From positions 1 to 64,000 of the forward strand of contig JBHLRZ010000002.1 of NCBI GenBank assembly GCA_048882045.1: a DNA stretch of 64,000 bases, written 5' to 3'. Below, one piece after another: positions 24,823 through 30,520 of the stretch. The position numbers and the translations under genes are program-made. The notes below the pieces were generated by a model. That model ran no database searches and was not told the origin of the DNA. It saw only the letters and a list, made by a program, of their open reading frames with translations. This DNA comes from Candidatus Thorarchaeota archaeon. GTDB lineage: Archaea > Asgardarchaeota > Thorarchaeia > Thorarchaeales > Thorarchaeaceae. Numbering within the stretch: position 1 is the stretch's first letter; each line of letters opens with the position of its first letter.

Positions 24823-25797
24823 ATGACGATTGCGATCCATGAGAGTGCACTGATTCGTCACTTTAACACACGCAAGGAAGTTTTGCGAGCGTGGGAAGAA
24901 AAGATCGGTGCTAGATTCTCACCATTTCGTGGTTTTAAGATGCCTGATAGTCGTCTATACATAGAGGACAGTGATTTTCTTGATTCAATTGTTGACTTGA
25001 TTATCACAAATGAAAGGCATGTCTTCATCCGAGGACCAGTAGGATCCGGAAAGAGCACTCTGATGTTGTTAGCGCTGAGAGATTTACCAACTCTTGCTGA
25101 TCGTAAAGGTAACAAATTCATTACAGGATATGTAGGGATGACAGGTCTCTACGAAAAACAGATGGCATCAGCTATTGCAGATTCTTTAAGGATAAAGTAC
25201 AGAAGATCATGGGAGTCCAGCCAGATTATTGATGCAGTTGCGAAGGAAAGTCTTCGTAGATATCTTGAGGAGAAAAGCCGTACTGCATTGTTCATCGAAG
25301 ATGTTGCAGACAATCAAGAGGCAGCTTTTCACAAATTGAGATTCCTAGCTGATTTACCAACTGAAGAGATGATTGATGCATACTCAGGAGCACTTGACGA
25401 GCCTATCTTCACATTGGTAATGTCTGGAACATTGATATATTGGAATGCAATGCTTTCATTCTTACCACAGATAGCAGATCGAACTGAACCACTTGATGTG
25501 CCACCACTCAATAACGCAAAAGCTAGAGAATTCATAGGTCGACGGATTGCCTATGCACAAAACAAGATTGATATCTTTGACCCAGAAAATTTCAGTATAT
25601 ATCCATTTTCGGAAAGTGCAGTAGAGGTCATTAATACTGCAGCTAAAGGGAATCCACGAGACATACGAATGCTCGCACGCGGATGTCAACAAGTAGCAGC
25701 TGAGAATCTTAGAAATACTGGAAATCCGGATGTTACCAAGGATATTGCTGTACTTGTTTCTGAGGCATATGCTACTCTACTCAGGGAGGTTCAATAA
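24823..25797 (+). CDS. ExeA/TnsC-like (AAA_22-type) AAA+ ATPase
   Basis: Walker A GPVGSGKS, Walker B variant LFIEDVA, sensor-I VMSGT, QIADR, FIGRRI, PFSESAV, sensor-II GNPRDI. Confidence 0.8.
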   Translation: MTIAIHESALIRHFNTRKEVLRAWEEKIGARFSPFRGFKMPDSRLYIEDSDFLDSIVDLIITNERHVFIRGPVGSGKSTLMLLALRDLPTLADRKGNKFITGYVGMTGLYEKQMASAIADSLRIKYRRSWESSQIIDAVAKESLRRYLEEKSRTALFIEDVADNQEAAFHKLRFLADLPTEEMIDAYSGALDEPIFTLVMSGTLIYWNAMLSFLPQIADRTEPLDVPPLNNAKAREFIGRRIAYAQNKIDIFDPENFSIYPFSESAVEVINTAAKGNPRDIRMLARGCQQVAAENLRNTGNPDVTKDIAVLVSEAYATLLREVQ

Positions 25798-25798
25798 A

Positions 25799-26092
25799 GT
25801 GAGTCTACTTGGAAAATACAGAAAAGAAGCAGAAAAAGAAGACGAAGAACCAAGGGCTGTAGTCAGAGAAACCGATTCTGTATCAAAACAGAGCGAGCTC
25901 TTATCATCCGTACCTAACAAAGAACGTAAGAGCCCCATCGTTTCCTTCTCTATTCCGACCGATCTCAGAGCCTGCCTAAAGGCTATACGTAAAACAAAGG
26001 CGATTAACCTTAGTATGTGGGTTGAGAAACAGCTCCGTGAAGCAGTGGCACAAGAGTTTCCACAAATTGCAGAAGAATTCCTTGAAAATTAA
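25799..26092 (+). CDS. Putative ribbon-helix-helix DNA-binding protein with charged N-terminal tail
   Basis: GTG 1 nt after the ATPase stop, preceded by GGAGGT; IVSFSIPTDLRACLKAI...INLSMWVEKQLREAV fits RHH strand-helix-helix. Confidence 0.72.
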   Translation: MSLLGKYRKEAEKEDEEPRAVVRETDSVSKQSELLSSVPNKERKSPIVSFSIPTDLRACLKAIRKTKAINLSMWVEKQLREAVAQEFPQIAEEFLEN

Positions 26093-27569: not shown

Positions 27570-28820
27570 CTACTGGTAATACACACCTCTTTCCTTGAGA
27601 AGTGCTCGTTGAAGACTGAGGAGTTTTCCTCGATTCATACAATCTCTATCGAGTTGTGTTTCTATAACGTAATCAGTTTCAGGACACCGTTTGTGTACAT
27701 TTCTTATCGAACGAATCGCTGTGTCTATGATTTCCTGTTTCTTGTTTGTACACAAAATCTCAACTAATGACGACACAGCTGATTCGTGATAGAAATTCCC
27801 GATAGCTAAGATTGCCATTGTTGCCACACGGTTGTCAGTCATCTCGGACGCTTTTTCTAGTACCATAAGGGAATCAATGGCACGCACAGTGACATGAACC
27901 TGGATATGTTGTAAGATAGCATTGAATGCAGTGGCTGATTGAGTTTCACTATATTGAGAAATCGATTCGTCGAGAAGTGCATTTAGTGTTGGTAAGGCAT
28001 GTTTACTTGCCAGACGACTGAGTCCTTCTATGTCTTGTTGGATTATCTGATCCAGCAACTCTTTGTACAATTTGTTTGCAGGACTAAGATAGTCATCATT
28101 ATTGCGTGGATATGGATTCAGATTCTCTTGTAATGAAACTGGTTCTTGTATTACTGATAATACACGACTCAAGATATCAGGAGTTACTTGGTTTCCTCTT
28201 ATCCCTAGACTAGTCAGTGTGACACGTCCCTGTTCACAGTACCAAAGTGGACTAATGTTGATAATGGATTCATCTTGTACCAGAGAGATAGCACGAAGCT
28301 TCTCGCTTCTCATTCGCTGAAGCAGGTCTATAGTTTTTTGAGATATGGTAGTACTGTCTGAGAAATCATAGAACAGGGTATCGCCACTTTTGATCTGTGT
28401 GACGGCAAGATTTTCGAGTCTAGTAGCAAGGGCGTTTGAAGCGTCTATCAATGACTTCTCAGAATCAAGCTCACTAAGTAGTACTGATGTATCAACAGGA
28501 ACTGGTTCAAGACCTGAACATGAAAGAAGATTAAAAACAACTTCTCTGTACTTCAGCTGTTCTAGCTCTGCTTCAGTTTTGCCTAAAGTCATCGATAAGG
28601 AATATTTTTGGTCTTGTGCTTTCCGAAGATAACCAAGTACTGAAGACCAACCCTCATCCTGTTCAATTTGTGCTATGACATCTACAAGATCTCTATCACG
28701 GCGGTCTCCTATGGTATTTGCAATCATTCGGACTCGTTCACGTTCATCAGATTCCTTGACTCTTCTTTTGACTGCCTTGAGGATTCGATCACGACTTGTT
28801 TTGTCAGTCAAGGGAATCAC
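27570..28820 (-). CDS. Helical hypothetical protein with C-terminal HEAT-like repeats
   Basis: 416-aa ORF; ATMAILAIGN...SAVSSLVEIL...IIDTAIRSI. Confidence 0.65.
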   Translation of the reverse strand: MIPLTDKTSRDRILKAVKRRVKESDERERVRMIANTIGDRRDRDLVDVIAQIEQDEGWSSVLGYLRKAQDQKYSLSMTLGKTEAELEQLKYREVVFNLLSCSGLEPVPVDTSVLLSELDSEKSLIDASNALATRLENLAVTQIKSGDTLFYDFSDSTTISQKTIDLLQRMRSEKLRAISLVQDESIINISPLWYCEQGRVTLTSLGIRGNQVTPDILSRVLSVIQEPVSLQENLNPYPRNNDDYLSPANKLYKELLDQIIQQDIEGLSRLASKHALPTLNALLDESISQYSETQSATAFNAILQHIQVHVTVRAIDSLMVLEKASEMTDNRVATMAILAIGNFYHESAVSSLVEILCTNKKQEIIDTAIRSIRNVHKRCPETDYVIETQLDRDCMNRGKLLSLQRALLKERGVYYQ

Positions 28821-28997
28821 AGCTCTATAGATGATTGTTCATTGAACCCGAAGAAGACGATTAAGGTTTCTTGGGTTACCCTGAAGATTGTATTTCTTGT
28901 ATTACATGTATCAAATAATGAAAGAAAGCGCCAAATCAATGTCAAAAAAAGTCGTTCTATGATTAGAACTATGTATACTTGAGACCATGTAATGTAT

Positions 28998-29180
28998 GAG
29001 TGTGTCGTACAATGGCAAGTAGGCCACGTCGACGAGGACACCTCTCCGACGTGCCAGGCGTTCGTCATTGACGTCATCTCTATCTCCTCAAACAAACCTC
29101 CAGGATGACCTAATGGTTGCCTTGGTGATGGAGAAGGAAGCACTCGCATGCGTTGGAATACTTCGCAGTGCGACACGCTC
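28998..29180 (+). ncRNA. Unassigned structured ncRNA (~185 nt, multibranch)
   Basis: 13-bp closing stem GAGTGTGTCGTAC (28998-29010)/GTGCGACACGCTC (29168-29180) with 2 G-U pairs; 3-4 internal hairpins; TATGTATA at 28970-28977; T-tract 29187-29200. Confidence 0.7.
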
Positions 29181-29186
29181 GAGCCG

Positions 29187-29200
29187 TTTATTTTTTCTTT
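29187..29200 (+). terminator. Oligo-T terminator of the putative ncRNA
   Basis: TTTATTTTTTCTTT just downstream of the closing stem. Confidence 0.6.
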
Positions 29201-29745
29201 CATTCAGATTTTCTTCTAGAGATTTCTGACTTCAAGGCAAGTGATGTAGAGAGTTCATCGAGAGCAGACATGATTGTCCGTTCAGTGACTCTGATACTTT
29301 CTAGTTCTTCTGTTGTCAGTTCTTTCTTCCCTGCAAGTATGTCTCGAATCCTTCTGTAGTCACCGATCCTAGCCGCAACTTCTTCAAACGGTCTGAAGAT
29401 AGTAAACTCGAATAGACCCAGATATGCGAGAAGTAGCATTGTGTAGAAACATCGTGTGAGGTTTCTCCTAGCTTGCATGAGCGTCCGGTTGAATGCTCCT
29501 CTGGACACACCACGTGATCTAGTCCCTTCTTTAGATCGAAAAGATGCCTTGTCTTCGTATGTAATATGAGATCCATAGGAGTCTTCTACTACTAAGTCTA
29601 TGAGAAGAGTTTCGATTTGTGCCTCACTTAGAAAAGATCCTTCTTGGAGTTTTTTCAGTATTGGTTCTTTCAGAACTTGTTTTGCACCTGATGTCAGCTG
29701 TTTCACTTTGTCCTTTCCTTCACTTTGTTTTGGGTTCAAAGTCAA
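29200..29745 (-). CDS. Conserved archaeal HTH-type protein
   Basis: LSEAQIETLL..., YEDKASFR...GVSRGAFNRTLMQARRNL (sigma-region-4-like HTH). Confidence 0.7.
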   Translation of the reverse strand: MTLNPKQSEGKDKVKQLTSGAKQVLKEPILKKLQEGSFLSEAQIETLLIDLVVEDSYGSHITYEDKASFRSKEGTRSRGVSRGAFNRTLMQARRNLTRCFYTMLLLAYLGLFEFTIFRPFEEVAARIGDYRRIRDILAGKKELTTEELESIRVTERTIMSALDELSTSLALKSEISRRKSE

Positions 29746-29937: not shown

Positions 29938-30348
29938 CTATCTTTTTGAAAGAGTCCATTCAGATTCTGGGGTCATAGCTACAAATCCCAAAATTAAATT
30001 TCCACGGATCTCATCAAACTTGTACACTCCAAATACATTCCTTCCCGAGTCGTCAGTCCATTCAACACGACCACGTAGTAAGTAATGCTGGAACACAACA
30101 CGACTCTGTTTTCTAACAGATGCGAAGAGATTTTTGTATCTCCTACGTTGGGAAGGTCTGATTCCCCATCTAACAAAAATGAATCTGTTAGTGAGACTGT
30201 TACTGGAGATTAGAACAGACTTTCTACCTCGAGTATTGATGGCTTCCTTGAGTGCGTTTCTAAGACACTCAGGTATAGAAGCCAATATGGATGGAGTTGG
30301 ATCGGGTTCACGAACGAGCTGTCGAGTACGTACACTGCGGTCTGTCAC
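29938..30348 (-). CDS. Basic hypothetical protein, possibly winged-helix nucleic-acid binding
   Basis: 136 aa, very Arg-rich, helices followed by a beta-hairpin ending VYKF. Confidence 0.6.
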   Translation of the reverse strand: MTDRSVRTRQLVREPDPTPSILASIPECLRNALKEAINTRGRKSVLISSNSLTNRFIFVRWGIRPSQRRRYKNLFASVRKQSRVVFQHYLLRGRVEWTDDSGRNVFGVYKFDEIRGNLILGFVAMTPESEWTLSKR

Positions 30349-30520
30349 GTTGGTTCAATACTTTTTTCCGATAGGAGCCTTAAGAGGTCCTACAAAGTTT
30401 GTCACTTCATTGAATTATTATCATGGATGCCATTGAATACGGCGAAGGTGTTGACCCTTTGATGGAGCAAGCTGTGATTGATTTAGTTGATAAATAGTTG
30501 TAATACAAGTATTAGATGGG

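Follow-up and report, generated by a model that had tools for sequence, protein, structure and literature searches.

A predicted small RNA of Thorarchaeota with a near-invariant, anti-Shine-Dalgarno-like tip loop

Introduction

In Firmicutes, small RNAs with unpaired C-rich motifs pair through these motifs with Shine-Dalgarno (SD) sites (PMC3861533). Among archaea, sRNA162 of Methanosarcina mazei masks a ribosome-binding site with a single-stranded region (PMC3510493). Bacterial 6S RNA is defined by a central bubble, which mimics an open promoter (PMC4064990). Transcription regulators residing in the membrane have also been reviewed (PMC10269533). Our literature search found neither an Asgard-specific regulatory RNA family nor an archaeal description of translation initiation being controlled globally by an RNA that mimics the 16S 3' end.

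Here, we describe a predicted RNA gene located in a 64,000-nt stretch of DNA from Candidatus Thorarchaeota archaeon (assembly GCA_048882045.1, contig JBHLRZ010000002.1, positions 1 to 64,000), referred to below as the window. A sequence-only reading of this DNA had proposed an unassigned, multibranched ncRNA of about 185 nt with its own promoter and terminator. The locus was compared with its homologues and with RNAs of known function.

Results

Identity and strand of the RNA gene

The RNA lies between a HEAT-repeat gene (27570-28820, minus strand) and a gene for a 181-aa HTH-like protein (29200-29745, minus strand). We annotate it as an ncRNA at 28996-29195 of the plus strand, with inferred ends and the shape of a single imperfect rod of ~190 nt. 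The segment 28990-29200 folds more stably than expected by chance (z -4.0; 0 of 200 shuffles). Among the homologues compared, 30 of 31 fold better on the plus strand (mean z -4.6 vs -2.3), and variation in the closing stem consists mostly of G-U changes, which would be A-C mismatches on the opposite strand and therefore support the plus strand. The strand chosen earlier from G-U wobbles agrees with this result.

The sequence-only reading had seen no signature of SRP RNA, RNase P RNA, tRNA or a familiar riboswitch, and the Rfam comparison bears this out: a covariance-model search of Rfam 15 gave no match for the element at E<=10, and eight diverse homologous loci gave none at E<=1. The genes for SRP RNA (C11:46113-46423; E 3e-18, under the cut-off) and RNase P RNA (C1:75143-75483) are located elsewhere in the genome. 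No paralogues of the RNA were found within its own genome, and a tRNA-like CCA end, also considered, is not conserved. The RNA family is new: neither Rfam nor the literature searched describes a member of it.

A 128-aa ORF of the minus strand crosses the gap between the two genes and has no match in a Pfam search. Of 85 homologues, only 14 have a minus-strand frame that continues uninterrupted through the RNA, and 6 have one on the plus strand; overlapping ORFs are not conserved, so a protein-coding gene was rejected and the proposed stand-alone ncRNA was upheld. A cis element or mini-ORF on a minus-strand transcript that covers the HTH gene and continues into the HEAT gene, in which the loop complement would serve as SD, spacer and AUG, was also weighed. 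On the minus strand of this genome, GAGGAG is indeed located 12 nt before an ATG, and the 128-aa ORF crosses the gap. However, a start codon is absent in 19 of 85 homologues, the peptide would range from 2 to 86 aa, and the frame across the RNA is rarely open. The G-U pairs, the promoter and the U-tract all point to the plus strand, and the unit in G107 has the reverse orientation with respect to the HTH gene. We give this minus-strand reading scarcely any chance. Judged by comparison of homologues, the element is very probably a real ncRNA gene of the plus strand.

Secondary structure

The closing stem of the rod (28997-29010 with 29168-29181) is conserved in sequence; across 31 homologues from many genera, 99% of its cells are paired, and two pairs show changes on both sides. 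Inside this stem, the 5' arm (29011-29070) pairs with 29111-29167, while the apical helix is formed by 29073-29079 and 29103-29109; the 3' arm extends over 29103-29167. Both arms vary in sequence and length, and the stem-to-stem length ranges from 144 to 198 nt. Helices of the 5' arm are 79-99% paired in the genus alignment, with two-sided changes. The apical helix is 100% paired in the genus, and other genera keep its pairing with changed letters. In nearly all homologues, the arm-arm duplex is more stable than the fold of either arm by itself.

An unbranched hairpin was predicted for 63 of 81 homologues, as compared to 19 of 620 arm-shuffled controls (3%). On the 35-member genus alignment, pairing reaches 92% for the rod, 17 of whose pairs have changed on both sides, and 81% for the multibranched fold; the alignment was built from sequence only and the rod was derived from it, which favours the rod in this comparison. 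Sliding the rod along the same alignment drops pairing to 31-41%.

All segments named in the sequence-only reading are present at the positions given there, among them the closing stem (28998-29010/29168-29180), four inner hairpins, and AAGTA (29017-29021) with TACTT (29159-29163). Their multibranched arrangement, however, is the minimum-energy structure of this genome only (-77.8 kcal/mol vs -71.7 kcal/mol for the rod). Three inner helices fail on the 35-sequence alignment, namely TCTCTATC/GATGGAGA (71% paired, without any two-sided change), AACC/GGTT (80%) and TGCG/CGCA (54%), and GGCGT/ACGTC depends on an insertion found in 3 of 35 sequences. The supposed pseudoknot AAGTA/TACTT is a nested helix of the rod, and the TCGCA segment thought to compete with the closing stem occurs in only ~7-9 of 35 rows. 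Covariation, named earlier as the check on the fold, thus speaks for the rod and not for the multibranched inner helices, with the exception of a hairpin in the 5' arm (29025-29053). The latter covaries within the genus, and in some distant members a branch is seen at this place; overall, the hairpin is weak (mean z -0.8) and may represent an alternative fold.

Bacterial 6S RNA, with about 185-200 nt, belongs to the same size class and is likewise a rod whose 5' and 3' ends pair with each other and close it. A function as a 6S-like decoy for RNA polymerase is nevertheless hardly credible: the central bubble is absent, the largest two-sided internal loop being at most 6 nt in 41 of 42 homologues, conservation resides at the tip, and there is no Rfam match to 6S RNA. 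Archaeal C/D or H/ACA guide RNAs were rejected, since the GAUGA-like segment is part of the paired apical helix and varies across genera, no conserved complement was found in the rRNA of relatives, and Rfam gave no match. Y RNAs and bacterial Yrl RNAs possess paired 5' and 3' ends, a pyrimidine-rich loop and a U-tail. They were rejected as well; a Ro60 (TROVE) gene was present in 0 of 31 genomes searched (control rings in 2 of 14).

Tip loop and its complementarity to SD sites

The rod ends in a 23-nt tip loop (29080-29102, plus strand), which is composed of motif 1, CUAUCUCCUCA (29080-29090), an A-rich linker, and motif 2, AACCUCCA (29095-29102). Both motifs are anti-SD-like. The loop mostly measures 20-27 nt across homologues. 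Its core, AUCUCCUC, was present in all 42 representatives, and CUAUCUCCUC in 41 of 42; this set includes members found by the covariance model and not by pattern. The second motif, ACCUC or a one-letter variant of it, occurs in 28-35 of 42. CUCCUC is predicted to be unpaired with a mean probability of 0.84. Only the closing stem and this predicted single-stranded loop are conserved in sequence, as expected of a seed. Neither the near-invariant loop nor the conserved promoter palindrome described below appeared in the sequence-only reading.

Both loop motifs are complementary to the SD motifs of this genome; at about -16 to -11 of genes, these SD motifs show a 6-9-fold enrichment. The loop motifs also resemble the 16S 3' end of relatives (GGAUCACCUCCU); rRNA is unassembled in this genome, and that of relatives was compared instead.

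Distribution, gene neighbourhood and loss

Of the 36 family genomes searched at the DNA level, 33 contain a match, and the covariance model detected one copy per genome in 30 of 33 Thorarchaeota family genomes. A pattern scan that included metagenomes yielded 82 distinct true homologues, the carriers being Thorarchaeota wherever a lineage was given. Three pattern matches outside this group (L044, L079, and L081) lack the closing stem and were dismissed as chance. Among 118 other Asgard genomes, the covariance model made no real match and two marginal ones (E ~0.02); very distant relatives could escape this model, which has only 13 base pairs. The RNA was not found beside HTH orthologues of other Asgard families, and the viral contigs searched gave 0 matches. 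Three copies of the RNA promoter on contigs C7, C36 and C74 of G011, one assembly with 7% contamination, probably reflect mixed binning and not duplication.

The 181-aa HTH-like gene adjoins the RNA in every locus long enough to judge. It is the usual neighbour and not an obligate partner, as it also occurs in other Asgard families and in RNA-less Thorarchaeota. Bathyarchaeota and several Asgard families encode relatives of its product, frequently close to the same AAA+ gene. This gene and a further one of the minus strand (29938-30348), both uncharacterised, travel with the RNA. At 30349-30520, between the 136-aa gene and iorB, most relatives contain ~2.4 kb more than this genome.

In G029, G197, G198, and G203, the HEAT and HTH genes are ~90-100 bp apart, and the promoter and the RNA are both deleted. 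These four genomes form one clade with 99% support, which implies a single loss. Judged by this deletion, the RNA is dispensable.

Upstream of the promoter and outside the RNA unit, the window contains the heptad array noted previously (28889-28913). It belongs to 19 GTAWTAC sites, all those of the window, which fall within 22 kb (11334-33746; 4 expected) and several of which are inside genes. The same interval holds 6 of 8 genome-wide matches to a longer heptad pair, located around the AAA+ (24823-25797) and RHH (~25780-26092) genes. The distance between heptads and promoter is variable (41 to 97 nt), or heptads are absent, and heptad-like copies persist in the gap after deletion of the RNA. 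The suggested co-regulation with the AAA-RHH system by way of these heptads is therefore not borne out. In most genomes, the RNA is located inside this field at a distance of ~3 kb from the AAA-RHH operon, which would suit a DNA-level hairpin, or an RNA acting in an origin-side partition or replication field. We see a very slim chance for either, given that G-U covariation and the anatomy of promoter and terminator indicate an RNA, and that the AAA, RHH and HTH genes, like the heptad-like copies, outlast the RNA.

Promoter, terminator and putative regulator

The palindrome GTTCTA-N4-TAGAAC (28954-28969) is a probable transcription-factor site in the RNA promoter. It is directly followed by a TATA-like box, TATGTATA (28970-28977, plus strand), ~25 nt before the inferred start (~28996-28998). 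In 139 of 140 loci, 44±1 nt separate the start of the palindrome from the first G of the stem, and positions +16 to +21 of the element, which are TATA-like, are kept in 79-84 of 84 distinct promoters. The copy at 28954-28969 is the only perfect one in this genome. The U-tract at 29187-29200 (plus strand) is a probable archaeal terminator; at least six T in 8 nt, at most 22 nt from the stem, are found in 60 of 85 homologues. Termination at U-tracts is described for archaea (PMC8716108). The spacing of these elements across loci is consistent with the promoter and terminator proposed earlier, by which the RNA would be transcribed as an independent unit. A resemblance of the promoter element to a Bacillus dif site was considered and rejected, given that the symmetry centre is another one, that the distance to the promoter is fixed and that a gene is preceded by a second copy.

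Many genomes outside this genus possess a second perfect palindrome. Nineteen of 20 sites compared, from 19 genomes and 8 genera, occupy one orthologous place. A wHTH gene, whose product is HTH_20/ArsR-like and bears hydrophobic helices at its C-terminus, ends with its stop codon directly before this place, and the gene for a ~300-aa surface protein with a signal-like N-terminus and a C-terminal anchor follows, the topology of both proteins being read from sequence. This genome and the four g3 genomes inspected carry a degenerate form of the second site. The cassette itself, encoding the secreted anchored protein and the wHTH protein, is located here at C1:169850-171240 (minus strand) between korD/korA and hdrB, with the membrane-anchored regulator at C1:170785-171237. 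Most genomes encode several paralogues of this regulator.

In the RNA-less clade, the regulator and surface-protein genes are cleanly deleted and hdrB adjoins korD, while most RNA-bearing relatives retain both genes. This co-loss of the RNA and the cassette represents a single event. G172 keeps the RNA despite a frameshifted regulator and an absent surface gene; no regulator orthologue was found in the incomplete genomes G112 and G190. The common palindrome suggests that the RNA and the surface-protein gene are likely under a shared regulator. Tentatively, this regulator may be the membrane-anchored wHTH protein.

Candidate targets and possible function

Our preferred but still tentative explanation is that the element encodes a trans-acting sRNA of Thorarchaeota, which would mask ribosome-binding sites. 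It would be transcribed by itself on the plus strand, its promoter having a palindromic operator of its own, and would end at the U-tract. The paired ends of the rod would protect the RNA, and its tip would display two C/U-rich motifs. Through these motifs, a set of mRNAs may be bound at their SD regions (GAGGAG/GAGGUG/GGAGGU plus spacer), which would block 30S loading. Transcription would probably be set by the regulator shared with the surface-protein gene, for which the membrane-anchored wHTH protein beside the second operator is the likeliest candidate.

Among the start regions of the genome, the best match to the loop lies at C1:199862 and is complementary to it over 13 nt without a mismatch. 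This complement is perfect in three orthologues and differs by 1-2 changes in two, with a protein identity of 42-57%. The candidate target gene is present in only 5 of 24 genus members and, thus, cannot account for the family-wide invariance of the loop. No family-wide conserved target was found; in several genomes the 12-nt complement occurs only within the RNA gene itself. Predicted duplexes in start regions outnumber those in coding windows (337 vs 94), an excess that is circular in part, since SD strength was the criterion by which starts had been selected. The top predicted targets show no enrichment for membrane or secreted proteins (p about 0.4).

The candidate target (C1:199875-200501) encodes a patchily distributed 208-aa membrane or secreted protein that has a hydrophobic helix at its N-terminus and contains numerous repeats of the DFRLDPGE type; only 9 database relatives of it were found. 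TFB was rejected as a target, as its start region retains only an ordinary SD. A motif like CCGGGAGACTGTC is located ~60-70 nt upstream of the start of the TFB orthologue (C1:48574, minus strand) in many genera and is possibly a regulatory site or a leader element. A 17-nt complement in G176 was discarded; it lies inside a coding region (aIF2-gamma-like, by eye) and is absent from this genome. SRP and RNase P RNAs were rejected as loop targets.

The 11-nt near-invariant loop is stricter than wobble-tolerant pairing with many mRNAs requires, and its invariance suits recognition by a protein equally well as pairing with mRNA. The element could then be a protein-binding RNA, a decoy or scaffold to whose loop and closing stem proteins bind, such as a factor specific for the pyrimidine-rich 16S 3' tail, or an RNA-binding regulator, that the RNA would titrate. 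The near-invariance of the loop, for which no conserved mRNA target was found, its resemblance to the 16S tail, and the sequence conservation of both rod ends next to variable arms are all in favour of this function. Yet the loop does not keep GGAUCA, the part of the 16S tail that is read by KH-domain tail-binding proteins. Moreover, a co-occurring RNA-binding partner was not found, and the neighbouring HTH gene exists without the RNA. We regard a protein-binding function as less likely than SD masking, yet as a reading of appreciable weight.

Pairing of the loop with rRNA, as an assembly guide or an inhibitor of the ribosome, would also account for loop invariance. A 13-bp bulged duplex is predicted with the 16S segment GAGGAAGGUGGGGG; of three Thorarchaeota 16S genes, two give it a score of about -17 kcal/mol. 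This duplex, however, is rich in G-U pairs, is outscored by another site in the third 16S gene, and contains at most 9-10 contiguous pairs, which is the level of chance. Comparison of the 23S rRNA of relatives revealed no shared site, and the RNA is deleted in one clade, all of which makes pairing with rRNA highly unlikely. The 16S match in G035 (C2:589938-592348) measures ~2.4 kb as compared to ~1.5 kb in G030, which suggests insertions or introns.

A broader possibility, and a rather improbable one, is a general anti-SD RNA. The rod with its two 16S-tail-like motifs would compete with the ribosome, or titrate a 16S-tail-binding factor, across many SD-led mRNAs and would be switched by the membrane-anchored regulator. 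If true, this would amount to global control of translation initiation by an RNA mimic of the 16S 3' end and would explain an invariant loop without a single conserved target.

Discussion

The RNA is kept across the sampled genera of Thorarchaeota and offers sharp predicted ends, a candidate seed, a candidate regulator and a clade with a natural deletion. It allows a direct test of RNA control over translation initiation at SD sites in Asgard archaea. Being lineage-restricted and dispensable, it is unlikely to be the ancestor of a eukaryotic RNA.

Of the structured RNAs compared, bacterial 6S RNA shares the rod, the closing stem and the terminal loop with the Thorarchaeota RNA, but not the absence of a central bubble. 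Y and Yrl RNAs are about half as long, and neither an Rfam match nor a Ro60/TROVE gene of the host was found here. The regulon of E. coli sigmaE with MicA and RybB is an envelope-stress sRNA regulon. A common logic with such regulons is possible, in that a membrane sensor would control both a surface-protein gene and an sRNA. The link in Thorarchaeota consists of a shared DNA site and one co-loss, and the predicted targets show no envelope enrichment.

Closer parallels are provided by the sRNAs that mask SD sites. In sRNA162 of M. mazei the active region is an unstructured linker, which also acts in cis, whereas the candidate seed described here is a tip loop on a closed rod and is conserved family-wide. 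The RsaE family of S. aureus and hairpins H7, H13, and H14 of RNAIII carry conserved unpaired C-rich loop motifs complementary to SD sites, as is predicted for the RNA of Thorarchaeota. These Firmicutes sRNAs are independent transcription units, and the promoter elements and U-tract suggest the same for the archaeal RNA. The latter differs in being archaeal, in lacking sequence or Rfam similarity to them, and in presenting UCUCCUC/ACCUC in place of UCCC, with targets that are predicted. It is a long rod with both motifs in a single large tip loop, while the Firmicutes sRNAs consist of several small hairpins. In its likely mechanism, the Thorarchaeota RNA is a variant of an already known kind, that of SD-masking sRNAs with C-rich loops.
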